Positions 20,888 through 38,311 of a DNA stretch of 64,000 bases are shown in pieces (the first letter of the stretch is position 1; each line of letters starts with the position of its first letter). Below the pieces are notes generated by a model that was given only the letters and a program-made list of their open reading frames with translations, was not told the origin of the DNA and searched no databases. The translations under genes and the position numbers were made by a program. This DNA comes from a virus, in IMG/VR virus record IMGVR_UViG_3300007351_000277, positions 1 through 64,000 of that record; one strand, 5' to 3'.

Positions 20888-20908
20888 ATCAATTTGCAGG
20901 GGGATTTC

Positions 20909-23266: not shown

Positions 23267-23841
23267 GATTATCGCTTGGCTGTGGTGCAGCATTGTTGCC
23301 ACCACCGTGGCGCAACCTGGACTACGCTAAGCAGTCGATACCGAAAGGATACCACTTCCAGCTTTACGACCTGCGTGATGGGTTACCGTACCCGGACAAC
23401 TCGGTGGACCTGATTCACTGTGCCCACGCTCTCGACCACGTTAGCTTTTATGATGCAGTGGCCTTACTAAAAGAGTGCAAGCGTGTCATGTGTCCTATGT
23501 CAGTAGGACGGTTTATCATGATGGACTTCGATGCCATCTGGAACGCCTATCAGGACCGGCAGGTCAACACCTTTGCCAAGTGGCAGCCCCCCGAGTGGGG
23601 GCGTCTGCGCAGCAATGCCTTGAAGCTATCGCTGTTCCTGATGGGTAGCATGTCAGGACAACGAGAGTATACCGGGCACTGGTGGGTAACGGACTTTGGT
23701 GGATTTCGGGAGATGGCGAGTATGGCGGGGTTTTCGGATGTAAAGCGGATGGAGTATGGCAAGAGTCAGAGTCGCGTCATAGAGATAGAGGTGCCCGAAG
23801 CCTACCCGGACCACAGCTTGTATGTTGAGGTAGTAAGGTGA
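23242..23841 (+). CDS. class I SAM-dependent methyltransferase
   Basis: LSLGCGAALLP motif I-like, then DNSVDLIHCAHALDHV and LKECKRVMCP. Confidence 0.7.
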   Translation: MEATTVGLRLSLGCGAALLPPPWRNLDYAKQSIPKGYHFQLYDLRDGLPYPDNSVDLIHCAHALDHVSFYDAVALLKECKRVMCPMSVGRFIMMDFDAIWNAYQDRQVNTFAKWQPPEWGRLRSNALKLSLFLMGSMSGQREYTGHWWVTDFGGFREMASMAGFSDVKRMEYGKSQSRVIEIEVPEAYPDHSLYVEVVR

Positions 23842-24554
23842 GAATCAATGATTATCACAAGGTTGTTGTTATTCCAGCACACAATGAGGCCAACAACATC
23901 GCTAATCTGGTGGCGCAGGCAAAAGAATACGGCAAAGTAATCGTGGTGGACGATGGCTCGACGGACAGGACAGCAGTAGAGGCTGCACTGGCTGGTGCTA
24001 TTGTGCTATCCAACCCACCTGGTTCCCAGTATGGCGACGGTTTCATGCGAGGCGTAAGTGCCGCGCTGTCCTATGGCGCCAAGCAGATTGTGACGATGGA
24101 CGCTGGGGGTAGCCATGACCCCAACGACCTTTCTGTTTTGCTGCGCCACCTTGTACTGCCCTATATGGTTGTCATCGGTACCCGTGGCACAGAAGGGGCC
24201 AAGATCAGTCAGCCACTGCATCGTAGGCTACTGACCAAGGCAGCTACCTATGCGATGTATCGACTGACCGGGCAGACAATATACGACTACAGCAGCTTTC
24301 GTGCTTTCACCTGCAACTCAGCCAGAGTGGTACTATCGGTCGCCAAAGACCTACCGAAACGATGTCATGTGTTCAATCCAGCCTTGGCGATGGCCATGGC
24401 ACAGCAGCCACTACTGCGCTTTATCCACGTCCCCATCAACTTCAGGTCCACCAACTCTAGCCTGAAGCCTATGGACATAATACAGGCAGCATGGCAGTTG
24501 GCTGTGATGCTGAAAGCAGAGAACATCGAAAGGACACTCAGGTGCTTACGGTAA
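23838..24554 (+). CDS. family 2 glycosyltransferase (dolichyl/polyprenyl-phosphate sugar synthase-like)
   Basis: VVIPAHNEANNIANLV...VIVVDDGSTDRT...TMDAGGSHDP. Confidence 0.85.
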   Translation: MRINDYHKVVVIPAHNEANNIANLVAQAKEYGKVIVVDDGSTDRTAVEAALAGAIVLSNPPGSQYGDGFMRGVSAALSYGAKQIVTMDAGGSHDPNDLSVLLRHLVLPYMVVIGTRGTEGAKISQPLHRRLLTKAATYAMYRLTGQTIYDYSSFRAFTCNSARVVLSVAKDLPKRCHVFNPALAMAMAQQPLLRFIHVPINFRSTNSSLKPMDIIQAAWQLAVMLKAENIERTLRCLR

Positions 24555-25273
24555 CAGCCTTCATCCCCTACTGCAACTACATGCACGACACTAGCAACCT
24601 GCAAGCGTGCCTGAAGACCGTGGCTGCGCAAACGCAGCCCTTCCACCAGATCATCCTATCGGACGACTCACACGCGGACGATAGACCAGAAGTACAGGAA
24701 CTATGTAGGCAATATGGGATAGAGTACCTTGAGTTTCCGTTTGTCAACTATGCGCCTGCCTTCGGTCGCAAGTTCAACAGGTCTTTTGCGCAGACCACCG
24801 GGGATGCTATCTGCCTATTGTGCAGCAATTGGGTGTTGGGCAGTAATTGGGTAGAGGAAATGGCACGGTGGCTTGATGAGTTAGGGCCGGGGCACGTCGT
24901 TGCGTCGGACAACGCACGGCACAAGATGCTTAACGCGCAAGGAATACCTTACGACTGGTTTGCTGGAAGCCCGGATCGCTTCAAAGCAAGCAATCACCAC
25001 CTGATAGATGAAGGCTTCCTGACCATACTTCATCGACAGGACTGGATACCCTTTCCTGAAGCTTATGACCCCCCAGAGGATGACCTGAGTGCGACCAAGG
25101 GTGCATGGCACGCAGTAATCGAATGGGGACGTGATCTGATGGGAAAACAGGGGGTACAGTTGTGGATACGGCGAGACCTGGAAGCTGAGCATCTGCCCAA
25201 GCGTGACCCGGTAGAGTGGAAAGAACAGTGCAAATGGTCCGATGGTATCTTGCAACAGAGGGGCGCAATGTAA
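24542..25273 (+). CDS. GT-A-like glycosyltransferase, paralog 1
   Basis: Track ORF is 24491..25273. In-frame GTG 24542 follows AAAGGA. Motifs: TAFIPYCN...QIILSDDSHADD. Clear paralog of the next gene. Confidence 0.55.
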   Translation: MLTVTAFIPYCNYMHDTSNLQACLKTVAAQTQPFHQIILSDDSHADDRPEVQELCRQYGIEYLEFPFVNYAPAFGRKFNRSFAQTTGDAICLLCSNWVLGSNWVEEMARWLDELGPGHVVASDNARHKMLNAQGIPYDWFAGSPDRFKASNHHLIDEGFLTILHRQDWIPFPEAYDPPEDDLSATKGAWHAVIEWGRDLMGKQGVQLWIRRDLEAEHLPKRDPVEWKEQCKWSDGILQQRGAM

Positions 25274-26016
25274 TGGAAGGTCCTACCGTATCCTGCTTTC
25301 TAGAGTTTGCGAACCCTTATCGGGATACCACGTTGTTTCGAGAAACCTTGCAGTCGCTGAGAAACCAAACATATCCCCTGCATGAAATCTTCGTCTGCGA
25401 TGATGCACCACCGGAAGACAGAGGTGAGATAGCAGCGTTGTGTAGCGAGTTCAACGCTATCCACGTGGAATACCCCTTCCGTAACTGGGGGTTAGCCAAC
25501 GGTGGCATGTACAACGACTGCTACCGAGCAAGTACGGGCGAAGTCTTACTGGTACTTTGCAGCGGGTTTATCCTTGGTGCTCGGTGGCTGGAAGAAATGC
25601 TGAAGACACTTATGGCCAAGGGCCCAGGCAATCTGGTGGGTACTGATTTTAACTGGATCAACCGAGAGTTTCCACACCCGTTTGATAGCCAGCCTGATCC
25701 CTACCAGACATTACGTAATGACAACTACGACCATGCCAAAACCATCTTGTTTCGTGAGGATTGGATTGATTACGATATCGAGTTTGATGCGGTTGGGTTT
25801 GATGGCCTGACTGGTAATCAGCACGGACAAGTCTGGTGGGGGAAGCAGCATCAGCATGCTGGACATAGCCTCTGGTTGCGTCGCAACATGGATATGCGAC
25901 ATCCACGCAGGCCACAACTAGAGGAATTTAGTAGACATGTCATGGATCGCTTCTTTTGGTCGCATGAGATTTTGGTCGAGAAGGAAGGCTTACCACCATC
26001 ACTAGACGTAGCGTGA
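25273..26016 (+). CDS. GT-A-like glycosyltransferase, paralog 2
   Basis: Track ORF is 25216..26016. ATG 25273 overlaps the preceding stop (TAATG). Motifs: VSCFLEFANP...EIFVCDDAPPEDR. It aligns along its whole length with 24542..25273. Confidence 0.55.
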   Translation: MEGPTVSCFLEFANPYRDTTLFRETLQSLRNQTYPLHEIFVCDDAPPEDRGEIAALCSEFNAIHVEYPFRNWGLANGGMYNDCYRASTGEVLLVLCSGFILGARWLEEMLKTLMAKGPGNLVGTDFNWINREFPHPFDSQPDPYQTLRNDNYDHAKTILFREDWIDYDIEFDAVGFDGLTGNQHGQVWWGKQHQHAGHSLWLRRNMDMRHPRRPQLEEFSRHVMDRFFWSHEILVEKEGLPPSLDVA

Positions 26017-27104
26017 TCCCACTTTTGAAACCGTCTTGTTCTGAACAGGAAATAGCAAACGTCACGGACGTGTTGCGTTCCGGTTGGTGGGGTATGGGAC
26101 CGAAGTGCGAGGAATTCGAGCAGAAACTGGCTGAACGGTACGAACGTAAGCATTGCGTGACGGTCAACAGCGCCACAGCAGCGTTGCACCTGGCACTGAA
26201 GGCTCACGGTATAGGACCAGGCGATGAGGTTATCCTGCCTGCCCTCACCTTTGTGAGCACGGCATTGGCGGTGGAATACTGTGGGGCCAAGCCGGTGTTT
26301 GCAGACGTGAGTCCCAAGACCCTTTGTATTGACTGGGATAGTGTTGGCGAGTGTTGCAGTGTTCGCACAGCAGCGGTGATCCCGGTTGATTATGCTGGGT
26401 ATCCAGCGATGGAAGGTGAGCCAGATAGCGTGCTGATTGTTCAGGACGCTGCACATTCCTGTGGTGGCATTGGGTATGGCGACTTGATCTGCCTTTCGTT
26501 TCATCCCGTGAAGCCATTGGCCACTGGCGATGGTGGTGCCATTCTAACTGATAACGACGAAGAAGCAGAGCGACTGCGATCCCTACGGTGGTGTGGAATT
26601 GATAAGAGCACGTGGGAAAGAGCCAGGCAGAAATATGGGTGGGATTATTCCATCCAAGCGATTGGCTACAAGTATCACTGGAATGACCTTCAGGCTGCGA
26701 TTGGCCTTGCACAGTTGGAACGCCTTGATGAGATGACCGAAAGGCGACGCCAGATCGCTACGTGCTACACAGCAGCGTTCAAGCCACTGGAAGGCCGAGG
26801 ATTGATTCAGTGTCCTGCGGTGCATGATCGCCATACCTGGCACCTGTACGTAATCAGGGTAGATGCTGATGCTCGTAATCAGCTTATCGACCACTTGACG
26901 AATCAGGGGATATCGGCAGGCGTGCACTACAAGCCACTGACGCATTATCGTATGTGGCAGGGGCAGCGAGGCAACTTACCGGTGACCGAACGGGAATGGC
27001 AGAGGATGGTGTCGTTGCCCATATACCCGGACATGACAGAGGAAGAGCAACTAAGGGTAATCAATGCAGTTAGAGAGTTCTTTGAGCAACGTCAATACGC
27101 CTGA
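26013..27104 (+). CDS. DegT/DnrJ/EryC1-family PLP-dependent sugar aminotransferase
   Basis: IPLLKPSCSEQEIANVTDVLRSGWWGMGPKCEEFE...; PLP-lysine context SFHPVKPLATGDGG. Confidence 0.9.
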   Translation: MIPLLKPSCSEQEIANVTDVLRSGWWGMGPKCEEFEQKLAERYERKHCVTVNSATAALHLALKAHGIGPGDEVILPALTFVSTALAVEYCGAKPVFADVSPKTLCIDWDSVGECCSVRTAAVIPVDYAGYPAMEGEPDSVLIVQDAAHSCGGIGYGDLICLSFHPVKPLATGDGGAILTDNDEEAERLRSLRWCGIDKSTWERARQKYGWDYSIQAIGYKYHWNDLQAAIGLAQLERLDEMTERRRQIATCYTAAFKPLEGRGLIQCPAVHDRHTWHLYVIRVDADARNQLIDHLTNQGISAGVHYKPLTHYRMWQGQRGNLPVTEREWQRMVSLPIYPDMTEEEQLRVINAVREFFEQRQYA

Positions 27105-27633
27105 ATTTTGGGATACGCAGTACAGCACAACCGAGCCATCTAGCTACATTGGCTGGACGTCACTGGTGTTACGTGTAGCCAAGAGATGCACGCAGGGTCC
27201 TCTCGTGGTGGATTTTGGCTGTGGCCACAGTGCATTCCATTACTCACTACACGAAGCCATGCCATGCACCTTAATCGGGATCGACTTCTCGGAAACAGTG
27301 CAACAGTATAACCGGGGTATCTTCCCTGATGATTTGTGGCTGGTGCGTGATGTTTGCGATACCAGGCTGGCCAGCGCTATAGCGGACATGGTGGTGAGCC
27401 ATGCGGTTGCAGAGCACCTTAACGATCCAGAGCATCTGGTTGCTGAGATGTGGCGAGTGCTGAGACCTGGGGGGATGTTCTTGTTGGGGATACCCCTTCA
27501 GTCCGTTCGTCCTGACCACGTTAAGCTATACGAGTGGAAGGATGTGCTGGCATTGGTTCAATCATATGGTGGTCTGCTAGAAACAGTACAGATATCCCGC
27601 AGGGCCTATGTCATGCTGAGGAAGGGGGATTAG
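27064..27633 (+). CDS. class I SAM-dependent methyltransferase
   Basis: VVDFGCGHS motif I, then DMVVSHAVAEHL and LRPGGMFLLG. Confidence 0.75.
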   Translation: MQLESSLSNVNTPEFWDTQYSTTEPSSYIGWTSLVLRVAKRCTQGPLVVDFGCGHSAFHYSLHEAMPCTLIGIDFSETVQQYNRGIFPDDLWLVRDVCDTRLASAIADMVVSHAVAEHLNDPEHLVAEMWRVLRPGGMFLLGIPLQSVRPDHVKLYEWKDVLALVQSYGGLLETVQISRRAYVMLRKGD

Positions 27634-27634
27634 G

Positions 27635-28657
27635 TTGGCAACGCCACTGTACGACTCACTGCATGGTCTGTTTGCCGCCTCAGACCAAAAGTGTCACGAG
27701 ATGGTGCAGGGGCTTACCCCTCGGATTCTACGGATAGGGTCACACTATAACCATCCGTATCGTGTCTTGCCCCTACCATTCCCTGGCGAAGTGCATACGC
27801 TAGACATTGTGCCTGAGACATTTGTAGAGCACCACCAGCTTTACCCAAGCGATATTCTGGTAGAGGGCGACATTCGTGATATCCCGTATCCTGCTCACCA
27901 CTTCGACTTTGTATTCGAGCTATCCACCATCGACCATATTCATCAGAAGTGGGTACCGTTGGCGCTGGACAACATATGTCGGGTTTTGAAGCCAGCAGGG
28001 AAGTCGGTCATCGCCACATGGATTGGGCAGCAAGGATTCCATGGACCTGAATCACCGGCTGCAATTGGCGGGCAATACCACTTTGACTACTCGGTGTTCA
28101 CCGGGGAACTGAAGCAACGATTCAGCGTGGACTCGGAAGAGTTGCTGTACACGGTGGATGGTAACGACTTCTACCTGTTTACTGCCCATAAAGAGAAGCG
28201 TGACGGGGTGGTGATCTATCCTGTAGCAGCTATTGATATGGACTGGATGCGTGAGCTACGCAACCGATTCCGTCATTCTTTCAAGTACAACCAGGAGATA
28301 GGTGAACAGCAGCAGAAAGAGTGGTACCAGAATTACTGGCAACAACCACGTGACGATTATACGGTGTTTGCTGTATGGGCCGGGGATGATCGTATTGGCC
28401 TCACTTCCTACCGACGGTGGGACAGTGAGAGATACGAGCTAGGCAACAACATCATCGATACCCCGTTTCAAGGGCAGGGGTACTTTTCGCAAATCTATCG
28501 AGCAGTGAAGGGCCGGGTGGGGAATGCACCTATGGTAGCAACGGTGCTGAAGGACAACACACACATGATAGACGTGTATCGGCACCTGGGGTTTCGTATG
28601 GCCCCTTATGACGTACCCAATATGGTGTTGATGGTTGAGAGAAAATATGTCAGTTGA
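27635..28657 (+). CDS. methyltransferase-like N domain fused to a GNAT-like acetyltransferase C domain
   Basis: N-terminal part: DIRDIPYPAHHFDFVFELSTIDHI...VLKPAGKSVIA. C-terminal part: FAVWAGDDRIGLTSY...FQGQGYFSQIY...VLKDNTHMIDVYRHLGF. Confidence 0.6.
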   Translation: MATPLYDSLHGLFAASDQKCHEMVQGLTPRILRIGSHYNHPYRVLPLPFPGEVHTLDIVPETFVEHHQLYPSDILVEGDIRDIPYPAHHFDFVFELSTIDHIHQKWVPLALDNICRVLKPAGKSVIATWIGQQGFHGPESPAAIGGQYHFDYSVFTGELKQRFSVDSEELLYTVDGNDFYLFTAHKEKRDGVVIYPVAAIDMDWMRELRNRFRHSFKYNQEIGEQQQKEWYQNYWQQPRDDYTVFAVWAGDDRIGLTSYRRWDSERYELGNNIIDTPFQGQGYFSQIYRAVKGRVGNAPMVATVLKDNTHMIDVYRHLGFRMAPYDVPNMVLMVERKYVS

Positions 28658-29969
28658 CTTGGCGTTAGTGTTCCCGCGCATGAAATATCCCAGTGGTGAC
28701 CCACCGCTGGGGGTGGCGTCTATTGCTGCTTTCGTACGTGAGCAGGGGTACAGAGTGGCGATTGTCGATGCTACATGGCACCCTTCAGAGCAATGGGTGC
28801 TGGATGAAATCGAACGACTGGACCCTGACTTCGTGGGTATCTATACCTCGACGCTGATGCTGAACGATGCTAAGTCAATTGGCAGCAAGATTAAGCTGCG
28901 TAGTGCCATCAGTGGTAGGAAACGCAAGGTAATGATCGGGGGGCCACACTTCTCGGCCATGCCAGATCATGGGGGCGACTTTTCCTACTGCGACGTGGTC
29001 ACGCGTGGTGAGGGCGAGTACACCGTTGTCAACATCATGCGTAGTTACTATGACTTTAACAATCCAGTGGACCTAGCCACATTGCCAGCACCTGCACTGG
29101 ACCTATTGGATATGGATCGCTACATGGATCGGTGGCACTACCTGGACAGCATACAGATGGGTATGCGTGGTACCAACCTGATGGCACACCGCGGTTGTCC
29201 GTTTTGCTGTACCTACTGCCAGCCAACCGTTAACAGGTTGTTTGGGAGCACAATACGTAGTCGAACACCACAACAGGTAGTGGATGAGATGGAAGAGCTA
29301 CACGACCGATATGGGATCGACGGCTTCTTCTTCCATGACGACACTCTGACGATTAAGCATGACTGGCTGGGTGAGTTTCTGAGGCTGCTGGGCCAGATGA
29401 GTTTCTATCCCCTGTGGGGCTGCAATTCGAGAGTCAACACCGTAGATGAGGATTTGTTGTGGGCGATGGTCGTGGGGGGCTGTAGGGCAATCCACTGGGG
29501 CATAGAGGCAGGCAGTCAACGTGTACTGGACGAAATCTATAACAAGGGGATCAAGATTGAGCAAGTACGCCAAACACTCGCGATGTCGCGCCGTTTCCGT
29601 ATCCACAATGGTGGCTTCTTCATCCTGGGGGCACCGGGGGAAACGAGGCAAGAAATGCAAATCACCGTGGACCTTGCGTGCAAACTGCCTTTGGACGAGG
29701 CGTCGTTTAGCATATGTGTCCCGTTGCCCGGTACGACGTTGTACGAGAGGATGGCGTCAGAGGGACGGGTTTTTTCCGGGGACCCTCTGGACTATGACTA
29801 TTACCAACGGCAACCATTCGAGCACGACGTACCGTTGGTGGAGATAAAGGCGCTACAGCGTAAGGCGCTCATACGTTTCTACGGGCAGCGCAAGGGCTAC
29901 CTGTTGCGCCACCTGACCAGTTGGCGTGGCGTTAAGCGACTAGCACAGAAAGTAGGAAGATTCCTATGA
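28647..29969 (+). CDS. B12-binding-domain radical SAM enzyme 1
   Basis: Track ORF is 28635..29969. N-terminal Rossmann/B12-like pattern LALVFP...PPLGVASIAAFVREQGYRVAIVDA. Cluster motif RGCPFCCTYC. GGFFILGAPGET. Confidence 0.9.
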   Translation: MSVDLALVFPRMKYPSGDPPLGVASIAAFVREQGYRVAIVDATWHPSEQWVLDEIERLDPDFVGIYTSTLMLNDAKSIGSKIKLRSAISGRKRKVMIGGPHFSAMPDHGGDFSYCDVVTRGEGEYTVVNIMRSYYDFNNPVDLATLPAPALDLLDMDRYMDRWHYLDSIQMGMRGTNLMAHRGCPFCCTYCQPTVNRLFGSTIRSRTPQQVVDEMEELHDRYGIDGFFFHDDTLTIKHDWLGEFLRLLGQMSFYPLWGCNSRVNTVDEDLLWAMVVGGCRAIHWGIEAGSQRVLDEIYNKGIKIEQVRQTLAMSRRFRIHNGGFFILGAPGETRQEMQITVDLACKLPLDEASFSICVPLPGTTLYERMASEGRVFSGDPLDYDYYQRQPFEHDVPLVEIKALQRKALIRFYGQRKGYLLRHLTSWRGVKRLAQKVGRFL

Positions 29970-30181
29970 CAGATGATACCAAGCGACCAAACACATGGGA
30001 TCGTTGCAAGTTACAGCCAGGGACACCGTTCAAGGTATATTCGCCACCGCCAGTAACGATTTATGGTGAAGATGGACTTGCTATCCTTTGCGACTTGGTA
30101 CGAGGGGCATGGGCGAGGGGTTGTGACTTCCAGATCGATGCAAACATTATTGTGTTCACGAGGAATAAGGTTGAACGGTAG
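29966..30181 (+). CDS. small hypothetical protein (71 aa) between rSAM genes
   Basis: ATG overlaps the preceding stop. No motif. It overlaps the maximal ORF of the next gene. Confidence 0.35.
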   Translation: MTDDTKRPNTWDRCKLQPGTPFKVYSPPPVTIYGEDGLAILCDLVRGAWARGCDFQIDANIIVFTRNKVER

Positions 30182-31553
30182 GCAGCAAATCCTGTTTGTC
30201 AACCCACCATCACCCGATCCGTCTGCTCTCGACCTGGGCCTAACGTATCTGGCGACCTATATCAATGAAACGACGGGCCACAGAGCACGTATTCTGGACC
30301 TGGTGTGGCACCGACGGGACTGGCGCCAGGCACTGGCCAATGAACTAAGTACGGTGCGACCGGATTGGGTGGGCATCAGTACCAACAAGCTGTACCTACC
30401 TTATGTCCGTGATATCACGAAGGAATGTCACCAGCAGGGATACGATGTGGTGATTGGTGGGCACCAGGCATCGGTGGACCCCACGGGTTCTCTGGCCTTT
30501 ACGGGTGCGGATGCCTGCTGTACGGGCGATGGCGAGACTTCCTTTGTCCCCATGTTGAATGGAAGCCAGGAACGCCAGGAACAGCGGGTATGGCGAGGTT
30601 CGTTCATACGCGATCTGGACTCACTACCGGTACCGGACTTCTCGCTGTGGAAGCATCTTGATCGGTACTACTACCTGCTGGGTAGCCAGTATATGATCGG
30701 TAGTCGGGGATGTCCTTATCGGTGTTCCTTCTGTGACGCCCACGAGATCGCGGGGAAGGTAGGTGGACGCTACTTTCGTATCATGGGACCCGATCGATAC
30801 GCTCATGTGCTAGCTGAACTAAAGGTCCAGCACAACGTACCGATGTTCCAGTTGTTTGACCCGGTGTTCACCATCGACCCACAGTGGGTACGGGACTTCG
30901 CCGCGTCCTACTCTGTATTGGCCAAGCGCACACCCTACTCGGTGTTTGCTCGCATAGACCAACTGGACGAGAAGCGTGTTATTGCGCTGGCGTCGTCAGG
31001 ATGCAAAGTAGTGCGTGTCGGTATCGAGGCGGGCAACGACTATATCCGTAACAGCGTTTACGGTAAACACCTGGGGAAAGACAAGATACGTAAGGTCGTC
31101 AGCCTTTGCAAGCGTTACCGATTGGCCATGACGGGCTACTTTATTTTGGGTGGACCCAGCGAGACATCATCGACGGTGGAAGAAACGATTGCGTTTGCCC
31201 GCGAGCTGAACATAGCCCGAACGGTATTTTTCGTCTACAAGGTACTGACTAACGAGGGGCGCTGCCAGATGCGTAACGCGGGGGCTAAACTCTATGAGGA
31301 ACGATCGGATAACATCACCTTCGGGGCAGTGGCAGACCTGCCCGGACTTCCTGCCTGGCGCACCGAGCTTTACCAGAAGCAGGCATATGCGCTGACGTTC
31401 AGTAATCGATTGGCAAGGCTTCTTCGTGCACAGGGGCCAGGGTACGCTTTTCGTTTTGTCCAGTATATGGCAAAGGGCATAATGTGGGGCATTTCGCCCA
31501 AATATCTAATCCCGTACTTCAACGTGTACGGTGGACCCAACTCTCGGATGTGA
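30171..31553 (+). CDS. B12-binding-domain radical SAM enzyme 2
   Basis: Track ORF is 30063..31553. In-frame TTG 30171 follows AGGAATAAGG, and ATG 30138 is an alternative. Motifs: ILFVNPPSP...LGLTYLATYI...ARILDL; cluster motif RGCPYRCSFC; GYFILGGPSET. Confidence 0.9.
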   Translation: MNGRQQILFVNPPSPDPSALDLGLTYLATYINETTGHRARILDLVWHRRDWRQALANELSTVRPDWVGISTNKLYLPYVRDITKECHQQGYDVVIGGHQASVDPTGSLAFTGADACCTGDGETSFVPMLNGSQERQEQRVWRGSFIRDLDSLPVPDFSLWKHLDRYYYLLGSQYMIGSRGCPYRCSFCDAHEIAGKVGGRYFRIMGPDRYAHVLAELKVQHNVPMFQLFDPVFTIDPQWVRDFAASYSVLAKRTPYSVFARIDQLDEKRVIALASSGCKVVRVGIEAGNDYIRNSVYGKHLGKDKIRKVVSLCKRYRLAMTGYFILGGPSETSSTVEETIAFARELNIARTVFFVYKVLTNEGRCQMRNAGAKLYEERSDNITFGAVADLPGLPAWRTELYQKQAYALTFSNRLARLLRAQGPGYAFRFVQYMAKGIMWGISPKYLIPYFNVYGGPNSRM

Positions 31554-31563
31554 GGATTAGTAG

Positions 31564-32769
31564 TTGAAGGTAGCGTTGATTCACCCCGGTAGCCCGTTCT
31601 TGATAGACTCGGCAGTTCATCCCCCCCTTGGCCTGTGGTACCTGGGGGCAGTGCTCAAGCAGCACTGCCATGAGGTAGTCTACGTGGACCTGGGGATGAA
31701 CGATACCTGGCCCAACGATGCTGACCTGTATGGCATAACGGGCACCACGCCACAATTGGACTCGATGGAACGGACTATCAACTTCCTGACCATGCAGGGC
31801 AAGGTAGTGATGGGGGGGGGGCCTCACGCTACCGTTTGCCCCAACGAGCTACTGAACATGGGGGCGTCGTTCGTGGTACAGGGGGAAGGCGAATATATCC
31901 TACGTGACATGGCTCACAACCCTTTTGCCAACTATCCGAACCAAGTTTTCAGGGCGCCTCGTATCGAGGATTTGGACAGTCTACCCTTCCCTGATCGAGA
32001 ACAGGTGTCCCGATACACCTATTACATACCCGACCGGCATGGGAACAAACATGGGGCCACGACCATGATTACGAGTCGTGGGTGCAGCCACCACTGCTCG
32101 TTTTGTTCCCATGCTGTGTGGGGGAAGTTCTATCGGGAACGCTCAGCAGAGAACGTCCTGGGGGAAGTGCGTCACATAAAGGACTTGGGCTACGATGCCG
32201 TGCATTTCTTTGACGATTCCATGTGCATTAACACCAAGCGATTGCTGGCCATCTGCGATGGTATCAAGCAGTTGGGCATGATATGGCGCTGTTTCGTTCG
32301 GGCTGACCAGGTAACACCGAGGATACTCAAGGCGATGGCCAACGCAGGCTGTGTGGAAATTGGTATCGGGATAGAGTCGGGTAGCCAGAAGGTGCTAGAT
32401 GCTATTCATAAGGGCGAGACGGTAGAGATGCAGGCCATCGCTATCGAGTGGGCACGATATGCGGGAATACGCAGCAAGGCATTTGTGATAATCGGCCTTC
32501 CGGGTGAGGACTGGCAGTCGGTGGACGACACCATAGCGTTTCTGAAGCAAACACGACCGGACGAACTGGACGTAACGACCCTTCAGATCATGCCAGGAAG
32601 TCCTATCTATGGCGACCCTACCACGTTTGGCATCACCCGTAACCAGATGGCTACCTGGTACAAGGGCAGACGTGGCGAGTACGTGGTCAACCACCGCACC
32701 GAGGCATTGGACGCCGATGACCTACTGGTCGCCAGGGACTATATTGACGCACGCTTCCGTAAAAGGTGA
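31564..32769 (+). CDS. B12-binding-domain radical SAM enzyme 3
   Basis: VALIHPGSP...PPLGLWYLGAVLKQHCHEVVYVDL; cluster motif RGCSHHCSFC; AFVIIGLPGED. Confidence 0.9.
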   Translation: MKVALIHPGSPFLIDSAVHPPLGLWYLGAVLKQHCHEVVYVDLGMNDTWPNDADLYGITGTTPQLDSMERTINFLTMQGKVVMGGGPHATVCPNELLNMGASFVVQGEGEYILRDMAHNPFANYPNQVFRAPRIEDLDSLPFPDREQVSRYTYYIPDRHGNKHGATTMITSRGCSHHCSFCSHAVWGKFYRERSAENVLGEVRHIKDLGYDAVHFFDDSMCINTKRLLAICDGIKQLGMIWRCFVRADQVTPRILKAMANAGCVEIGIGIESGSQKVLDAIHKGETVEMQAIAIEWARYAGIRSKAFVIIGLPGEDWQSVDDTIAFLKQTRPDELDVTTLQIMPGSPIYGDPTTFGITRNQMATWYKGRRGEYVVNHRTEALDADDLLVARDYIDARFRKR

Positions 32770-32807
32770 CTATCCTATAAACAGCAAGCGAAACAGGGGG
32801 TGCGAAA

Positions 32808-33179
32808 GTGCCTAAAGTTCATGGGTATGAGTCGATTCGCCGGGACCATCTAGGCAAAATAGACATCGAGATGGTCCTGGCAGCGAAACTCAACAAGGAC
32901 AACACCGTAAGTGAGTTGGTGACCTGTACACCTGCAGATACGGACGTGGCCGCTGCTGCGCCTATGCCAGAGGGGACCAAGTATGTTTCGGTCTATTGTG
33001 CGTCCGCTTATGTGGTGGCGATGGGGGAACCAACATCCACGACGATAGGGATCGGTCTGGGTGCAGGTCAGGCTACTACATTTCCAGTAGATCGTACTGG
33101 TGTAGCTGCACACGATACCCCCCATGTTCAGAGTCCCACCGATGGTGCGGTGGTACGGATTACCTATCATAAGGGATGA
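32808..33179 (+). CDS. hypothetical protein
   Basis: 123-aa ORF with a GTG start after CAGGGGG. Confidence 0.5.
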   Translation: MPKVHGYESIRRDHLGKIDIEMVLAAKLNKDNTVSELVTCTPADTDVAAAAPMPEGTKYVSVYCASAYVVAMGEPTSTTIGIGLGAGQATTFPVDRTGVAAHDTPHVQSPTDGAVVRITYHKG

Positions 33180-33195
33180 GAAGGGGGTGAACTAA

Positions 33196-33636
33196 ATGGC
33201 AGTTACAGGAAAACTCTACGGACAGTTCTTAAAGCTGGCACTTAACAAAGAGATTGATTGGGATAGTGACCTGATCAAGGTGCAACTACACACCAGCAGT
33301 TATACCCCGGACCAGGACGCTCACGACTATGCCGACGATGCTACCAACGAGGTAGCATCGGGTAACGGCTATGTGCCCGGTGGTGCCACACTTGGCAATA
33401 AGTCTATCACCTATACAGCAGACGGTAACATCATCAAACTGGACGCTGACGATGTAGAATGGCCATCAAGTACCATCACAGCGCGTACGGCTGTAGTGGT
33501 GGACGCTGCAACGGGCGGAGCAACGACCAACCCACTCATTTGCTATCAGCAAAGCGATAGCGATATCGCATCTTCCAACGGAACCTTCACCGTGGAATGG
33601 AACGCATCCGGTATCGTTTCCATAACGGTATCGTAA
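33196..33636 (+). CDS. hypothetical structural protein
   Basis: 146 aa, RBS AAGGGGGTG. The beta-rich composition (GNGYVPGGATLGNKSITYTADGNIIKLDADDVEW) is reminiscent of virion surface proteins. Confidence 0.55.
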   Translation: MAVTGKLYGQFLKLALNKEIDWDSDLIKVQLHTSSYTPDQDAHDYADDATNEVASGNGYVPGGATLGNKSITYTADGNIIKLDADDVEWPSSTITARTAVVVDAATGGATTNPLICYQQSDSDIASSNGTFTVEWNASGIVSITVS

Positions 33637-33650
33637 GGACGGGAAGAAAA

Positions 33651-34016: not shown

Positions 34017-34018
34017 CA

Positions 34019-34042
34019 CCATTGTGCTGGCCAGCACAATGG
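34019..34042. repeat. perfect 24-nt palindrome CCATTGTGCTGG/CCAGCACAATGG
   Basis: Read directly. It begins 3 nt after the stop at 34016 and has no T-run. It could be a hairpin or a protein-binding site. Confidence 0.4.
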
Positions 34043-34061
34043 GAATAAAGGACATAATACG

Positions 34062-34271: not shown

Positions 34272-34566
34272 GGTTTTCGTACTGAGTATATGGCTCATTA
34301 TCAACCTAGGTACAGCGGACATAGATGTTACGCAGGTCATTGCCAATGATTCGGGATTCACCTATACGTTCACGACCACAATATCGGCAGGGGGATCGGT
34401 AGAAATACGGGTACGAGACATTGAAGCTATCCCCAGTAATTTTCAGGGGCATTTGACACTATCAGCTCGCAAGCCATTCACCGCGTATTTGCTGGACCCT
34501 GAGTATATCAGCAGCCCCGCACCCGTCTGGCGCTGCAAATGGCATCTGTGTGGGGGGGGCTGGTGA
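34258..34566 (+). CDS. hypothetical protein
   Basis: 102-aa ORF with a TTG start and a hydrophobic N terminus. Confidence 0.4.
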   Translation: MTAIEVFVLSIWLIINLGTADIDVTQVIANDSGFTYTFTTTISAGGSVEIRVRDIEAIPSNFQGHLTLSARKPFTAYLLDPEYISSPAPVWRCKWHLCGGGW

Positions 34567-36230
34567 CCTACTTTCTCAACAACTGCACGGTCGTCGAGGA
34601 CCTGGGCAAAGGCAGGCAACGAGCCAGCATCAGCATAAAGCCGGTGGCGTTCTGGAAGGCCGCGGTCGGCGGGGGGCTGGTGCAGACTGCCATTGACCAG
34701 ACGGTGCGGGCCAGCAAAACGGGCGACCTACCCTTTGAGGTGGTGGACGGTCCGTTCCGGTTGCGACTGCCCGACAGGTTGGCCAAGGATAAGCCATGCA
34801 TGGCCACCGAGGTTGATGGCTTCGGTACTACCTGGCGACCGGTGGACGTGTCGGACGTGCCAGGCAAGTCGGTCCTTGACGGGGTAGGCAACGTCATCGG
34901 GCGGGAGTGGGCGGGTGCCTGGGCTGGCTGCACGCTCAGGTATGTCAACTACGGGTTCAAGGTCAAAGCGGACGTGGACCTGGGCAAGGGGCATCCGGCG
35001 TCAATCTCGTTTGCTCAGGCAGCGCCCGAGGCGAGCGTGGCGACGAAGGTGGCGACGCTGACAGCCCGCACCGCAGGCGGGTTCGCCCTCTCTGACGACA
35101 AGGGCAAAAGCCTGCTGACCAGTCGTGCGGGCTATCTCTATAAGACGGGCGACATCGACTCGCCATCGGTGCCGGTCGAGACGGTGCTGGTAGTCGAGAA
35201 GGGCATCACCTACCTACGCTACATCCTGCCCAAGCCGCCGGACGGACAGGTGGACTGGTCGGGCTGGACGCTGGACCCCACGTGGGAGTCGCAGCCGGAC
35301 GCGGCAGCGGGTATAGACAATTTCATGCGTAGCGATAACGGCAGCACAAACTATGGCACCGACACCACGCTACGCATGGGTAAAGTGTCGACGATAACGG
35401 CGCGCACGCTGTTGCAGTTCGCCGATCCAGCGATAACAGGGGTCACATCATCGACCTTGACGCTCACCGTCAGCTCTGAAGCGGCAGACGTGACGAGCTA
35501 CTTCCAAGTTCATCGGTTGAAAGTGGCCTGGGTGGAAGCGCAGTCCACGTGGAATATCCGCAGCACGGGTAATAACTGGACCACCGCCGGGGCGTTTGAT
35601 GCTGCTGATTGCGAACAGGCCTACATATCAATTTCTGCCGGGGTTTCTGCTACCGCACCTGCTGGCACACAGGTGCCATTTACGTTGCCGGTGCTGTGGG
35701 CTGATACCGATCTCGGATACGGGTGGCTGATCCGAGGGCAGGCCGAAAACAGCGACTATTTCCTGATGGCCTCTTCCGACCACGCCACCGCTTCCTACCG
35801 GCCCAAGCTGACGGTGGTGTACGAGTCTGGCACCAACGTGACGTTGTATGCGGTAGCAGCAGTAGCAACTGCAAATGTGGGGGGCAATGCTGAGTTGCTA
35901 CCCGGTTATCTCTTGAAGGCAAAGGTGGCAGGGGGGACAGCCAGCGTGTCGAGTTCTACCTTTGGCGCTGGCGCGACCCTGAGTGCAGCAGCAGCCGCAG
36001 CAACTGCTACTGCACCCGAAGCGCCCCTGCGTGCTCACGCGGTTCTGCTGGCTGCTGTGGGGCAAGCGATAGCATCTTCAGCCAACGCTGCGTTCAAGGC
36101 ATCGTCCAAACTGGTGGCGGTAACGTGCGAGGCCACAGCGTTGGCACGAAACGCCATACTGCGAACAGGCTCACGGGCCATACAGAACAGTCGATTTCTC
36201 GCCTTACGCCTTTTTCGATCACTACGATGA
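34563..36230 (+). CDS. DNRLRE-domain-like protein (possible surface or fibre protein)
   Basis: Track ORF is 34539..36230. GTG 34563 overlaps the preceding stop (GTGA). The central segment GIDNFMRSDNGSTNYGTDTTLRMGK...RTLLQFADPAITG...STLTLTV...VHRLKVAWVEAQSTWN matches the DNRLRE pattern as I remember it. The tail is Ala-rich. The gene is visibly GC-richer than its neighbours. Confidence 0.65.
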   Translation: MTYFLNNCTVVEDLGKGRQRASISIKPVAFWKAAVGGGLVQTAIDQTVRASKTGDLPFEVVDGPFRLRLPDRLAKDKPCMATEVDGFGTTWRPVDVSDVPGKSVLDGVGNVIGREWAGAWAGCTLRYVNYGFKVKADVDLGKGHPASISFAQAAPEASVATKVATLTARTAGGFALSDDKGKSLLTSRAGYLYKTGDIDSPSVPVETVLVVEKGITYLRYILPKPPDGQVDWSGWTLDPTWESQPDAAAGIDNFMRSDNGSTNYGTDTTLRMGKVSTITARTLLQFADPAITGVTSSTLTLTVSSEAADVTSYFQVHRLKVAWVEAQSTWNIRSTGNNWTTAGAFDAADCEQAYISISAGVSATAPAGTQVPFTLPVLWADTDLGYGWLIRGQAENSDYFLMASSDHATASYRPKLTVVYESGTNVTLYAVAAVATANVGGNAELLPGYLLKAKVAGGTASVSSSTFGAGATLSAAAAAATATAPEAPLRAHAVLLAAVGQAIASSANAAFKASSKLVAVTCEATALARNAILRTGSRAIQNSRFLALRLFRSLR

Positions 36231-36243: not shown

Positions 36244-37389
36244 TTGAAAATTGCACTCATTACCCCACTGTACAAGATGTGGGCACCCCTGACCCCCCAT
36301 AAGCTCTACGAACCCGGTGGAATGGTGGGGGGTGGCGAAACCTCTATGATTCACGTCTCTCAGGAACTGGCCAAGCACGGACACGAAATGACGGTCTACA
36401 CTCACACCAAGAAGGAAGAAGTCTATGATGGCGTGCGATGGGTCCCCCTGCGACCGGACGGGAAGTTCAAGGACAGGCCCGCGTCCGTTGACGTTGCCAT
36501 TGCCTACGATAGCCCCCAGATACTGATGTCCATCAATGCTCACGTGCGCATACTGGAAAACCAGACCAACAACCCCACGTTGATCGGCTTACCTGACGGG
36601 CTGATCGATATGTTTGTCTTCAAAAGCGAGTGGCACAAAACCGCGGTGTCGCACGTGACGCCCACGTTACCACTGGAACGGTGCGTGGTGATCAGCAACG
36701 GGATCAACATCAGCCTTTATGCGGACCGGGCCAACATCAAAAAGGTGCCCAACCGTCTCATCTGGACTTCCTCACCGGACCGGGGGCTTCACCATGCGCT
36801 GCGCATCTTCGAGAGGGTACAGAGAGAAATACCGGACGCTACCTTCCACGTCTACTACAACTTTGATAACGCCTTTGAGTCAAGTAAGTACGGTATGGAC
36901 TACCGTACCGAGTGCTTGTGGCGGGCCAAGCGGTTATTGCAGACAGTGCCCAACGTGACCTACTTCGGGGCGGTGGACAAGAAAACGTTGGCCCAAGCGC
37001 AGATGGAAGCGCAGATGTTGCTGTTCCCCGAGGATACCATCACGCCCACCGAGGGCTTTGGCATTTCGGTCGGGGAGGCGATGGCCGCGGGCGCAATGGC
37101 CTTGCTTTCGACCTGCGACTGCTTGCCTGAAGTGTGGGGACCTGCCTCTGCAATGTTGTCTCTGCCGATAAACGATATCGTGTGGGCAGACGCTGTTTGT
37201 GAACTGCTGGGCGACCACGAAAAGAGGTCCATGTGTGTCGTCAAGGGCTATGAGCACGTCGAGAACTTCTCGTGGGATCGGGTTGGTGGCTATTGGAACA
37301 CACTTGTGACAGAACTGTATAACACCACCCCATGCCCGTACTGTAGTTCGCTAATAGGTTCGGATACAGCATGTCCCGTTGCTGCCTAA
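36244..37389 (+). CDS. family 4 (GT-B) glycosyltransferase
   Basis: KIALITP...GGGETSMIHVSQELAKHGHEMTVYTH; EX7E-like PTEGFGISVGEAMAAGAMAL. Confidence 0.85.
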   Translation: MKIALITPLYKMWAPLTPHKLYEPGGMVGGGETSMIHVSQELAKHGHEMTVYTHTKKEEVYDGVRWVPLRPDGKFKDRPASVDVAIAYDSPQILMSINAHVRILENQTNNPTLIGLPDGLIDMFVFKSEWHKTAVSHVTPTLPLERCVVISNGINISLYADRANIKKVPNRLIWTSSPDRGLHHALRIFERVQREIPDATFHVYYNFDNAFESSKYGMDYRTECLWRAKRLLQTVPNVTYFGAVDKKTLAQAQMEAQMLLFPEDTITPTEGFGISVGEAMAAGAMALLSTCDCLPEVWGPASAMLSLPINDIVWADAVCELLGDHEKRSMCVVKGYEHVENFSWDRVGGYWNTLVTELYNTTPCPYCSSLIGSDTACPVAA

Positions 37390-37462: not shown

Positions 37463-38311
37463 ATGGCCACACGTAGAATAGATATACGCAACTGGTTGGC
37501 TGATAAGATGGGCGACTACTTCTCGGGTTCCGTAGATTTCCCGGCCATCGGTACCATGTCGTCCACCACCATAAGCGACTCGAAGCTGACCCAACTGGAC
37601 ACCGACTACTGGAAGGGTGCCGATATTACGTTCGAGCATGCCACCGGGAGCATCGAAAATCGAACCGTGACTGACTACGTACCCTCGATAACCGGTCTTA
37701 CGGGTGGGATCATCCGACTGGACACTGCCCTCAGCACCGTTCCTTCGACCAATACTTACTACTATCTCTACCGACGTTTTCCCGTCGATTCCTACAATCG
37801 GGCCATCAATGGGGCGATACGTGACCTTCAGGGTAGGGTCGAAGTACGAAAGCGTGACACATCGCTGGTCGCTACCACCACGGTATTCGAGTACGTAGTG
37901 CCCACCATATCGCTCATCGACCGAGTGCTCGACATAGGCTATCTGGATGCTAACTACCATGACGAACCCAAGCGACTCGATAATCGGGTCTGGCTCGAGG
38001 AATGGAAAGATGGACTGCTTTCTATTCGCTTCAAGTCCGATGGCAACATAGCACCCAGCATGTCGATCTGTATCTGGGGGGCGGGCAAGCCACAGGAGCT
38101 GAGCAGTGATGCGTCGGTGTTGGAAACCGAGATACCCCCGGAGTACGTGCAGTCCTATGCAGCCGGTGAGCTAATGCAGAGTAAGTGGAGTGGGGTGGAC
38201 CCCCAGGACTCAGCAAGGCTGGCTACCTTCTACAAGCAGGAAGCGGAGTCGAAGATTCGACGGGTAAGGCGCTACGTCCCACGAGGGCGACTTATCAGGC
38301 AATGGGAGTAG
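37463..38311 (+). CDS. hypothetical tail/adaptor-region protein
   Basis: 282-aa ORF with RBS GGGAGCGGG. Called by position only. Confidence 0.55.
   Translation: MATRRIDIRNWLADKMGDYFSGSVDFPAIGTMSSTTISDSKLTQLDTDYWKGADITFEHATGSIENRTVTDYVPSITGLTGGIIRLDTALSTVPSTNTYYYLYRRFPVDSYNRAINGAIRDLQGRVEVRKRDTSLVATTTVFEYVVPTISLIDRVLDIGYLDANYHDEPKRLDNRVWLEEWKDGLLSIRFKSDGNIAPSMSICIWGAGKPQELSSDASVLETEIPPEYVQSYAAGELMQSKWSGVDPQDSARLATFYKQEAESKIRRVRRYVPRGRLIRQWE

Follow-up and report, generated by a model that had tools for sequence, protein, structure and literature searches.

Three consecutive genes of a tailed phage encode B12-type radical SAM enzymes which, on balance, appear to form a conserved tailoring set of a phage glycan island, where they would use radical chemistry, probably C-methylation, to tailor a sugar or glycan that is probably attached to the virion. 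The window, by which we mean the whole stretch of 64,000 nucleotides that was analysed, was confirmed to derive from a tailed phage, as Pfam and PHROG searches recognised the large terminase and portal, the major head protein and also an SU10-type adaptor, in line with the phage origin given in the original prediction.

Three enzymes and a small ORF

The three genes, here called rSAM1, rSAM2 and rSAM3, and the 71-codon ORF between the first two lie at 28647-32769, all four on the + strand:

28647..29969, + strand: rSAM1, 440 aa; PF02310 63.5 bits, PF04055 63.6 bits; motif CPFCCTYC
29966..30181, + strand: ORF71, a 71-aa orphan ORF overlapping both neighbours
30171..31553, + strand: rSAM2, 460 aa; PF02310 44.2 bits, PF04055 53.6 bits; motif CPYRCSFC
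31564..32769, + strand: rSAM3, 401 aa, TTG start; PF04055 84.3 bits, PF02310 52.6 bits; motif CSHHCSFC

The assignment of all three products as B12-binding radical SAM proteins held, with 44-64 bits for PF02310 and 54-84 bits for PF04055 against Pfam gathering thresholds of 32.1 bits (B12-binding) and 29.5 bits (Radical_SAM). The cluster motifs were present as originally quoted. Degeneracy of the cluster cysteines was looked for, and the three residues of CxxxCxxC were found to be invariant in each of the three family alignments (32-37 homologues), namely C184/C188/C191 of rSAM1 (alignment A4), C181/C185/C188 of rSAM2 (alignment A3) and C174/C178/C181 of rSAM3 (alignment A1). AlphaFold2 models of rSAM1 and rSAM3 had pLDDT values of 95.2 and 92.6, respectively. 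The start of rSAM1 is an ATG with a GAGAG ribosome-binding site, identical to the source gene call P0121. For rSAM2, the start is most likely the TTG at 30171 with an AGGA site upstream; this is the start of source gene call P0243, and the orthologues are 457-465 aa long. A longer rSAM2 ORF can be read from 30063, and its codon-usage score was that of non-coding sequence in that frame.

Pairwise identity among the three enzymes was only 26-28%. They had been described as paralogues, which stands in the sense of ancient paralogues from three different clades and not in the sense of a recent tandem triplication. Iterative action by similar paralogues, also proposed, lost its footing with this placement in different clades. 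The families differ in size, with about 50 close homologues of rSAM2 and more than 5,000 homologues of rSAM3. None of the three reached an NCBIfam equivalog cutoff (the best score was 141 bits where 600 are required) and no member of their clades has been characterised, so the chemistry proposed below is drawn from superfamily and context only.

Coupling of ORF71 between rSAM1 and rSAM2 was borne out, since it overlaps both: its ATG and the stop codon of rSAM1 share the sequence ATGA, and there is an 11-nt overlap with the start of rSAM2. Its codon-usage score (0.033) was the best of the six frames at that position, where the off-frame maximum was -0.063, but fell short of the average in-frame score (0.179 +/- 0.086), and GC3 was 0.49 versus 0.62-0.67 in the three enzymes. 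ORF71 is thus probably a real gene with atypical composition. Apart from ORF71 itself and a translated repeat matched by chance, the 1.84 billion representative proteins searched gave no hit. The related loci bearing the same enzymes had no homologue either, and no Pfam, NCBIfam or PHROG family matched. Each related contig had different ORFs between the enzymes. The role of substrate, carrier or recognition partner suggested for the 71-aa product accordingly found no support; judged from its sequence, ORF71 is a lineage-specific orphan gene and not a conserved substrate or partner.

The glycan island and its relatives

The enzymes belong to a glycan island of about 16.5 kb (20894-37389) that has the head genes on one side and the adaptor/tail genes on the other. 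Two further phage contigs from metagenomes, L009 and L010, carry the same three enzymes in the same order, with 47-55% identity. A third contig, L011, carries rSAM1 and rSAM2 in order, again with 47-55% identity for both, together with a third B12 radical SAM gene that is partial and on the opposite strand. In all three contigs there are GT2, DegT, GT4, CBM96-like or adaptor genes related to those of the window. With the radical SAM enzymes, the island comprises at least five glycosyltransferase genes, three methyltransferase domains, an aminotransferase and a GNAT domain; its other genes and the adaptor that bounds it are as follows:

20894..23266, + strand: GT2-TPR-GT4 fusion, 790 aa, island start (Pfam Glycos_transf_2, TPR, Glyco_transf_4/Glyco_trans_1_4; PHROG glycosyltransferase families)
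23242..23841, + strand: class I SAM methyltransferase (Pfam Methyltransf_11)
23838..24554, + strand: GT2 glycosyltransferase (PF00535 58.4 bits; 34% identity to L011 478-1131)
24491..25273, + strand: GT2 glycosyltransferase (PF00535; 49% identity to L011 1128-1883)
25216..26016, + strand: GT2 glycosyltransferase (PF00535; 42% identity to L010 649-1392)
26013..27104, + strand: DegT/PseC/ArnB-type sugar aminotransferase, PLP-dependent (PF01041 344.8 bits)
27064..27633, + strand: class I SAM methyltransferase (Pfam Methyltransf_11 63.2 bits)
27635..28657, + strand: methyltransferase-GNAT acetyltransferase fusion (Methyltransf_11, residues 43-125; Acetyltransf_3/Acetyltransf_1, residues 216-321)
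32808..33179, + strand: 123-aa protein with no Pfam or PHROG family, weakly conserved (31% identity over ~75 aa to 110-aa ORFs of L009 and L010)
33196..33636, + strand: 146-aa phage protein (phrog_644, 126.9 bits)
34539..36230, + strand: 563-aa relative of CBM96/disaggregatase-repeat proteins (Pfam Disaggr_repeat weak, below the gathering score)
36244..37389, + strand: GT4 glycosyltransferase, island end (Pfam Glycos_transf_1, Glyco_transf_4)
37463..38311, + strand: SU10-type head-tail adaptor bounding the island (PF24175 25.2 bits, slightly short of the gathering threshold)

The aminotransferase scored 293 bits with the NCBIfam PseC model and 283 bits with ArnB, both under the equivalog cutoffs, and had 30-31% identity to its DegT counterparts in L009 and L010. 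The 563-aa protein, a candidate surface or decoration protein, had counterparts with 31-32% identity in L009 (annotated CBM96) and L010 (no family). Identity of the GT4 enzyme at the island end was 50% to the GT4 of L009/L010 and 34% to that of L011, and identity of the adaptor was 44% to L010 14854-15668. The window's island contains neither a sugar 4,6-dehydratase nor a nucleotidyltransferase, and the sugar pathway is therefore incomplete unless the host contributes.

Homologues of the enzymes, cellular and viral, have similar surroundings, in which most genes are for glycosyltransferases, methyltransferases and sugar-nucleotide enzymes. The families prevailing among 101 neighbours of rSAM3 homologues at 18 cellular loci were Glyco_trans_1_2 (11), Glycos_transf_1 (9), Glycos_transf_2 (7), methyltransferases (7-9), GFO_IDH_MocA (8), Hexapep (4) and Epimerase/GDP_Man_Dehyd (3). 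At 37 IMG/VR loci with rSAM3-like genes, GT2 (14) and class I methyltransferases (10-12) led the 137 immediate neighbours. In one Omnitrophota genome, a pair of genes like rSAM1 and rSAM2 has PMT_2 (GT-C), GT2 and methyltransferase genes on its flanks; such genes occur also in a glycan-type cluster with five B12 radical SAM genes. The proposal that the enzymes act on the island sugar fits these neighbourhoods, both cellular and viral. One cellular cluster (L060) includes an amine-oxidase/desaturase-type flavoprotein, by which a lipid or polyprenol substrate is still conceivable.

Known enzymes and the possible use of cobalamin

The nearest solved structures were AprD4 and the cobalamin methylases QCMT, TsrM, OxsB, TokK and CysS. 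For all three enzymes, AprD4 (PDB 6FD2), the radical SAM 1,2-diol dehydratase of apramycin biosynthesis, came first by sequence, with E values of 1e-17 to 1e-21, and also by fold, with TM scores of 0.75 (rSAM1) and 0.83 (rSAM3). Its layout is likewise that of a Rossmann-like domain at the N-terminus and a radical SAM barrel, and its substrate is an amino sugar of the aminoglycoside type; aminoglycoside clusters also resemble the island in combining sugar tailoring with an aminotransferase and methyltransferases. AprD4 binds no cobalamin (PMC12931638) and is a dehydratase rather than a methylase, which speaks against the C-methylation reading, and its top rank favours the possibility, doubtful as we hold it, that at least one of the three enzymes, especially rSAM3, works free of cobalamin with its N-terminal domain as a structural remnant. 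Such an enzyme could catalyse another radical sugar reaction, for instance an AprD4-like 1,2-diol dehydration leading to deoxygenation, an HpnJ-like ring contraction or an epimerisation. The rSAM3 family profile points the same way, as it aligned with AprD4 over nearly the full length at 118 bits versus 92 bits for QCMT, and HpnJ was among the best NCBIfam partial matches. However, identity to AprD4 is only about 20%, the AprD4 family model NF033070 scored 73-92 bits against a cutoff of 500, and no AprD3-like reductase partner was found in the island by Pfam. The GGP(H) and GEGE motifs are kept in rSAM1-3, are invariant or nearly so in the three families and are common to QCMT and TokK, whereas AprD4 lacks them, judged from the one alignment covering its N-domain. 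In addition, OxsB, TokK, TsrM and CysS have cobalamin domains to which the N-domains of rSAM1 and rSAM2 aligned; with the N-domain of AprD4 these two showed no alignment. From these sequence comparisons, cobalamin use by rSAM1 and rSAM2 is likely, and cobalamin use by rSAM3 is uncertain.

Class B cobalamin-dependent radical SAM methyltransferases acting on sugars and small molecules include GenK, GenD1, Fom3, TokK and CysS (PMC12931638). The phage enzymes share with this class the B12-binding and radical SAM architecture, the comparison having been made with TokK and CysS. At 401-460 aa they are shorter than TokK and CysS (~620-680 aa) and are without the C-terminal domains of these two. Among isolated phages, Streptomyces phage SF3 (NC_028952) alone had a protein annotated as B12-binding radical SAM that matched rSAM1 and rSAM3 by tblastn; its gene differs in being single, and the identity of 25-30% extends over roughly half of the length.

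Second both by sequence and by fold was QCMT/MgmA (PDB 9CCB), the methyl-coenzyme M reductase glutamine C-methyltransferase, which is of similar size (450 aa) and shares the GGP and QGEGE motifs in its N-domain. This match to a protein methylase could mean that the three enzymes modify a peptide or virion protein by C-methylation or crosslinking, as do QCMT, Mmp10, PoyB/C and ApyD, with ORF71 or a structural protein as the substrate. The tight coupling of ORF71 between two of the enzymes, the setting of the genes among structural genes and partial matches to the NCBIfam RiPP family ApyD (77-118 bits) would agree with this role. We consider it quite improbable, since the orphan ORF71 and the changing ORFs at related loci leave no conserved precursor, domain searches found no PqqD/RRE, SPASM, protease or transporter genes, and the scores for ApyD, for the further RiPP family TIGR03975 and for QCMT were far under the cutoffs of 750, 282 and 360, respectively (50-115 bits for the QCMT model TIGR04014). 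Moreover, QCMT acts on a protein side chain in methanogens, whereas the context here, as in the neighbourhoods of the cellular and viral homologues, is of the glycan type and not of the RiPP type.

The virion as probable target and a proposed pathway

The virion is suggested as target by the position of the island inside the structural gene block, on the same strand within the late structural operon, and relatives show synteny of the island with structural genes. Phages of a separate, sipho-type lineage likewise have rSAM3-clade genes between the head-completion and tail-tube genes. Moron genes acting on the host typically occupy such places in a structural module as well. The island could instead remodel a host surface glycoconjugate (LPS, capsule, S-layer glycan or a polyprenol-linked intermediate), for example in superinfection exclusion or receptor masking, given that the cellular homologues occur in surface-glycan clusters, including ones with GT-C enzymes using polyprenol-phosphate sugars, and that serotype-altering phage glycosyltransferases are well known (PMC12619734). 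This appears unlikely to us: apart from the placement and synteny of the island, Pfam searches found no GT-C, flippase or polymerase genes in it, and the TPR-fused glycosyltransferase may point to a protein acceptor.

Glycans on the virion have a precedent, as those of mycobacteriophage capsids and tail tubes are documented (Freeman et al. 2023, as cited in PMC12619734), and the glycosylation cassettes of these phages, in what PMC12619734 relates of them, similarly place phage glycosyltransferases in or beside structural genes. The island described here is far larger than the mycobacteriophage cassettes. The mycobacteriophage cassettes reportedly contain glycosyltransferases with methyltransferases and are without radical SAM enzymes.

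If the three enzymes are indeed the tailoring set of a virion glycan, an NDP-4-keto-6-deoxyhexose supplied by the host would be aminated by the DegT-type aminotransferase, and the amino sugar could then acquire an N-acyl group through the GNAT domain and N- or O-methyl groups through the class I methyltransferases. SAM cleavage at the 4Fe-4S cluster of each radical SAM enzyme would generate a 5'-deoxyadenosyl radical that abstracts hydrogen from an unactivated sugar carbon. With rSAM1 and rSAM2, the substrate radical would likely be quenched by a methyl group from methylcobalamin, while rSAM3 might either transfer the methyl group of methylcobalamin or, as AprD4 does, work free of cobalamin and rearrange or dehydrate its substrate. 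Assembly of the glycan and its attachment, probably to virion proteins, would fall to the GT2 and GT4 enzymes, which include the TPR-fused protein.

Gene calls, domains and the small ORF between the enzymes

The original prediction placed three consecutive B12-binding radical SAM enzymes (rSAM1, rSAM2 and rSAM3) in this phage, and the domain searches bore it out. Gene starts and overlaps were read from the ORF list and the junction sequence:

28647-29969, plus strand: rSAM1, 440 aa; ATG start with GAGAG upstream; identical to the source gene call P0121
29966-30181, plus strand: ORF71, the 71-aa ORF; its start ATG overlaps the rSAM1 stop as ATGA
30171-31553, plus strand: rSAM2, 460 aa; TTG start with AGGA upstream; 11-nt overlap with the end of ORF71; identical to gene call P0243
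31564-32769, plus strand: rSAM3, 401 aa; TTG start

All three proteins scored above the Pfam gathering thresholds for both domains, with 54-84 bits for PF04055 (Radical_SAM; gathering score 29.5), which places them in the superfamily, and 44-64 bits for the N-terminal Rossmann-type PF02310 (B12-binding; gathering score 32.1). An N-terminal B12-binding domain joined to a radical SAM core is the class B architecture, and each of the three has it. The cysteines of the 4Fe-4S cluster motif CxxxCxxC are invariant in the family alignments of rSAM3, rSAM2 and rSAM1 (A1, A3 and A4, with 32-37 homologues of each enzyme). Radical SAM folds were the top matches of the AlphaFold2 models of rSAM3 (pLDDT 92.6) and rSAM1 (pLDDT 95.2). 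A longer rSAM2 ORF starting at 30063 was rejected on codon usage (score -0.256 for the extended frame against +0.144 for the ORF71 frame over the same bases) and on the lengths of the rSAM2 orthologues, which are 457-465 aa.

ORF71 is probably a genuine gene that is confined to its lineage and may have been acquired recently. Codon usage favoured the ORF71 frame with a low score, and the GC3 of ORF71 (0.49) lies below that of the enzymes (0.62-0.67). A phmmer search of 1.84 billion representative proteins returned ORF71 itself and one weak match, P0242 (E 9e-5), which, being the translation of a tandem repeat, was discarded as a chance match. ORF71 matched no family in Pfam, NCBIfam or PHROG, and no ORF in loci L001-L012 is similar to it. 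Each related locus has different ORFs between the enzymes, and one related phage contig (L010) has none between rSAM1 and rSAM2. The proposal that ORF71 is a conserved substrate, carrier or recognition partner was thus left without support. The related possibility that the enzymes modify a peptide or protein, with ORF71 as the substrate, is disfavoured by the same lack of conservation, by sub-threshold scores for RiPP families and by the glycan-type contexts of the genes. A RiPP-maturing system, recognised by a family score together with a conserved adjacent precursor, was not found here, ORF71 being unconserved in related loci and in databases. A small ORF between such enzymes should not be taken for a precursor peptide unless its conservation is shown.

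Nearest characterised families and the question of cobalamin

None of the three enzymes reached an NCBIfam equivalog cutoff. The best partial matches were to HpnJ, the ladderane-associated family, ApyD, QCMT and PhpK, at 62-141 bits against cutoffs of 360-750. The sugar and small-molecule C-methyltransferases GenK, GenD1 and Fom3, for which the searched sets offered neither sequences nor models, were not among the PDB and NCBIfam matches.

Table. NCBIfam scores of the three enzymes (family; bits for the three enzymes; cutoff). All scores lie below the cutoff.
AprD4 family diol dehydratase NF033070; 91.5, 73.1, 86; 500
HpnJ TIGR03471; 128.7, 76, 126.2 (partial alignments only); 577.6
PhpK-type P-methyltransferase TIGR04479; 76.2, 62.4, 140.5; 600
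QCMT / MJ_0865 TIGR04014; 115.1, 50.2, 90.6; 360
Ladderane-associated lipid B12 radical SAM TIGR04072; 119.7, 107.1, 96.7; 360
PoyC-like TIGR03975; rSAM1 49.5, rSAM3 69.1 (rSAM2 not listed); 282
ApyD NF050148; 77-118; 750

In the PDB, the best sequence matches of rSAM1 and rSAM3 were AprD4 (6FD2) and 9CCB, the latter being QCMT, the methyl-coenzyme M reductase glutamine C-methyltransferase (2026 review, PMC12931638); those of rSAM2 were AprD4 and TsrM. Foldseek gave AprD4 as the top fold (TM 0.83 for rSAM3 and 0.75 for rSAM1), followed by QCMT/MgmA, TsrM, CysS, OxsB, MiaB and TokK. The N-terminal 159 aa of rSAM1 alone found no match in the PDB, and alignments were obtained with profiles. The N-domain profile of the rSAM1 family aligned with OxsB, TokK, CysS, TsrM and QCMT and not with the N-domain of AprD4, while the best alignment of the rSAM2 N-domain was with the cobalamin domain of TsrM; the cobalamin domains of OxsB, TokK, CysS and TsrM aligned with the N-domains of both enzymes. 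The rSAM3 profile aligned with AprD4 over almost its full length (118 bits), and with QCMT at 92 bits. Where the rSAM3 family has GGPH and GEGE, AprD4 has GGCEG and ALAGDH, whereas QCMT has GGP and QGEGE; TokK shows the same GGPH...GEGE pattern against the rSAM1 profile.

As indirect evidence, these comparisons pull in two directions. Cobalamin use is favoured because the N-domains of rSAM1 and rSAM2 align with cobalamin domains and because GGP(H) and GEGE are conserved. It is disfavoured because AprD4, the best overall match, works without it: AprD4 binds no cobalamin (2026 review, PMC12931638). Judged from the sequences, rSAM1 and rSAM2 are likely to use cobalamin, and rSAM3 may do so. For rSAM3, or for more of the set, radical chemistry on a sugar without cobalamin, of the AprD4 or HpnJ kind, has to be taken seriously as an alternative; it concerns the chemistry, not the class of substrate.

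The enzyme set and its relatives in phages and cells

The three enzymes had been regarded as paralogues. They share only 26-28% identity with one another, and each has orthologues of its own at 47-55% identity in the related metagenomic phage contigs L009, L010 and L011, so that they form a conserved set and not a triplication. The gene orders in these contigs are:

L009: rSAM1, 284-aa ORF, rSAM2, ORFs of 144, 154 and 71 aa, rSAM3, DUF5662, GT4
L010: GT2, Hexapep, DegT, (gap) rSAM1, rSAM2, ORFs of 171 and 111 aa, rSAM3, reverse-strand HNH, GT4
L011: two GT2, (gap) rSAM1, four small ORFs, rSAM2; also an SU10 adaptor and, on the opposite strand, a partial third B12 radical SAM gene

The contigs are relatives carrying the same island, since they have in common with the window the genes for GT4 (50% identity), the adaptor (44%), the CBM96-like protein (31-32%), GT2 (42-49%) and DegT (30%). 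HNH homing-endonuclease genes lie on the opposite strand within or adjoining these islands (L009 13246-13350; L010 9114-9926 and 12564-13367); together with the LAGLIDADG genes of the window, they suggest that selfish elements move in and out of this lineage of phages a great deal.

Within the fetched flanks, two B12-type radical SAM genes were present in 3 of the 134 IMG/VR loci with any such match, and three in none. A profile scan of IMG/VR found no rSAM2 orthologue (best match 27% identical), and the rSAM2 profile found nothing above 36% identity among the matches listed in the metagenome scan. Single-sequence scans of IMG/VR with rSAM1 or rSAM3 returned no relatives; the matches came from profile scans. 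Exact look-ups of the window's rSAM3 and of P0001 gave no record, and rSAM1 matched no PHROG family. Against 50,697 deposited phage records, blastn of window positions 28000-33000 found no match and tblastn weak matches only: rSAM1 and rSAM3 both matched Streptomyces phage SF3, and rSAM3 also matched a Pseudomonas phage and a contig from a faecal phage. The SF3 protein was the only annotated B12-binding radical SAM protein found among these records.

In cells, homologues of rSAM3 turned up at 46 loci when 185,579 species genomes were searched by profile, and these loci belong to anaerobes (Geobacteraceae, Desulfuromonadaceae, Omnitrophota, Scalindua/Brocadiaceae, Bathyarchaeia and others). For 18 of the 46, three genes on each side were scanned against Pfam. 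Among these 101 proteins the top families were Glyco_trans_1_2 (11), Glycos_transf_1 (9), Methyltransf_24 (9) and GFO_IDH_MocA (8), followed by Glycos_transf_2 (7), Methyltransf_11 (7), Hexapep (4) and Epimerase/GDP_Man_Dehyd (3). Relatives of rSAM1 were repeatedly found on the same contigs as relatives of rSAM2. Candidatus Kaelpia imicola (Omnitrophota; L059 8617-14480) has, in this order, PMT_2, rSAM1-like, rSAM2-like, PMT/PMT_2, GT2 and methyltransferase genes, so that the two radical SAM genes are adjacent. A second genome (L060 166-21446) has five B12 radical SAM genes and one SPASM radical SAM gene in a glycan-type cluster, with PMT_2 (GT-C), GT2, polysaccharide deacetylase, methyltransferase and an amine-oxidase-type flavoprotein.

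Viral rSAM3-like genes are present on at least 266 contigs of IMG/VR. Among the 137 genes immediately adjoining them in 37 of these loci, GT2 (14) and class I methyltransferases (10-12) were the commonest, ahead of other glycosyltransferases, carbamoyltransferase, epimerase and DegT. A separate sipho-type lineage (L001-L008) carries a single rSAM3-clade gene at 52-57% identity (for example L001 10001-11203, L003 10001-11197, L007 10001-11215). In four of the five contigs examined this gene lies in the structural block, between the head-completion/neck genes and the tail tube gene, and in the fifth (L005) upstream of the capsid gene; usually the genes for a conserved 145-aa protein and for the tail tube follow it directly. 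Upstream of the capsid gene, several contigs of this lineage have genes for DUF268-type methyltransferases and for glycosyltransferases. The varying position resembles that of a mobile tailoring gene, not of a fixed structural partner. Taken together, the neighbourhoods point to tailoring of a glycan or glycoconjugate and not to RiPP, cofactor or lipid housekeeping roles.

The glycan island and a proposed pathway

In the window, the enzymes lie in an island of glycan-biosynthesis genes, set among tailed-phage markers:

1478-3022: large terminase
3031-4893: portal
17527-20095: major head protein (phrog_1357)
20894-37389: island, about 16.5 kb
 5' part, in order: GT2-TPR-GT4 fusion; methyltransferase; three GT2; DegT/PseC/ArnB-type aminotransferase
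 middle, in order: second methyltransferase; methyltransferase-GNAT fusion; the three radical SAM enzymes with ORF71
 3' part, in order: small proteins (the 146-aa one is phrog_644); CBM96/disaggregatase-like protein; GT4; then directly the adaptor
37463-38311: SU10-type adaptor

The GT2, GT4 and TPR-fusion genes thus stand between the major head protein and the adaptor, that is, within the structural block. The fusion (20894-23266) unites GT2 and GT4 domains with TPR repeats in one protein of 790 aa; such repeats recur beside cellular rSAM3 homologues too, and they may serve to recognise a protein acceptor.

Several other features of the window were recorded. The major head protein gene is split, 17527-17907 covering positions 28-140 of the phrog_1357 profile and 19424-20095 positions 141-324. 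Between the halves are two minus-strand LAGLIDADG homing-endonuclease ORFs (17942-18448 and 18581-19372), where GC dips to 0.49. A group I intron was detected at 19881-20131 (Rfam RF00028, 86.3 bits, E 1.4e-20), and the 17400-19600 insertion itself matched no Rfam family. Between the portal region and the head genes, a giant ORF of 2,749 aa (6200-14449) has LPD38, a large polyvalent protein-associated domain, as its only recognised domain. A Ro60/TROVE-like protein (46651-48276; phrog_850) has the Pfam TROVE and Ro60 vWA domains; at Rfam gathering thresholds, the window gave no match to a family of the Y-RNA kind.

The most economical reading of the island is an aminated, acylated and methylated sugar with radical tailoring, for which we infer the substrate, the individual reactions and the target alike. 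A host-provided NDP-4-keto-6-deoxyhexose would be aminated, then N-acylated and N- or O-methylated; the radical enzymes would modify it at unactivated carbons, and the glycosyltransferases would transfer the finished sugar, probably onto virion proteins. In mycobacteriophages, capsid and tail tube subunits carry glycans (Freeman et al. 2023, as cited in PMC12619734).

The island could instead remodel glycans of the host surface. Its place inside the structural operon, seen in both position and synteny, makes this less likely, as does the fact that it contains no genes for a GT-C enzyme, a flippase or a polymerase. DNA hypermodification was set aside as a target, the island lying in the structural block and the genes for replication and DNA methylases following only at 51-61 kb, over 15 kb further downstream; no hydroxymethylase or DNA-glycosyltransferase domain was found in the ten downstream ORFs scanned. 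That region encodes:

52729-53484: C5 cytosine DNA methylase
55483-56586: DNA polymerase III beta sliding clamp
57430-58695: N6/N4 DNA methylase with HTH domains

In its full form the proposal goes further, and we put it forward tentatively, as something that may well prove wrong: that a podovirus-like lineage has a radical pathway of three dedicated enzymes, dependent on cobalamin at least in part, which produces a multiply C-alkylated and/or deoxygenated amino sugar that no known route yields and that is displayed on the virion, and that, more broadly, the cassette of B12-type radical SAM enzyme, glycosyltransferase and methyltransferase is a widespread and unrecognised viral module for glycan tailoring.

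The radical SAM superfamily and the idea of phage glycosylation are already known; the conserved three-enzyme set and the recurrent viral radical SAM/glycosyltransferase/methyltransferase cassette are new. Full-text literature searches found no account that places B12-type radical SAM enzymes in structural or glycosylation modules of phages, and none that places them in cell-surface polysaccharide clusters. Virion glycosylation in phages is a recent discovery, and the cases known to us involve ordinary glycosyltransferases. Three oxygen-sensitive radical enzymes, probably B12-requiring and conserved in a phage structural operon, would have several consequences. Three uncharacterised B12 radical SAM clades, abundant in Omnitrophota, Desulfuromonadales, anammox bacteria and DPANN archaea, would gain a compact genetic context in which to look for their substrates. 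Some phages would put resources into a demanding kind of sugar chemistry, probably in order to shield or target the virion, and such phages would depend on their host for the supply of Fe-S clusters and possibly of cobalamin.
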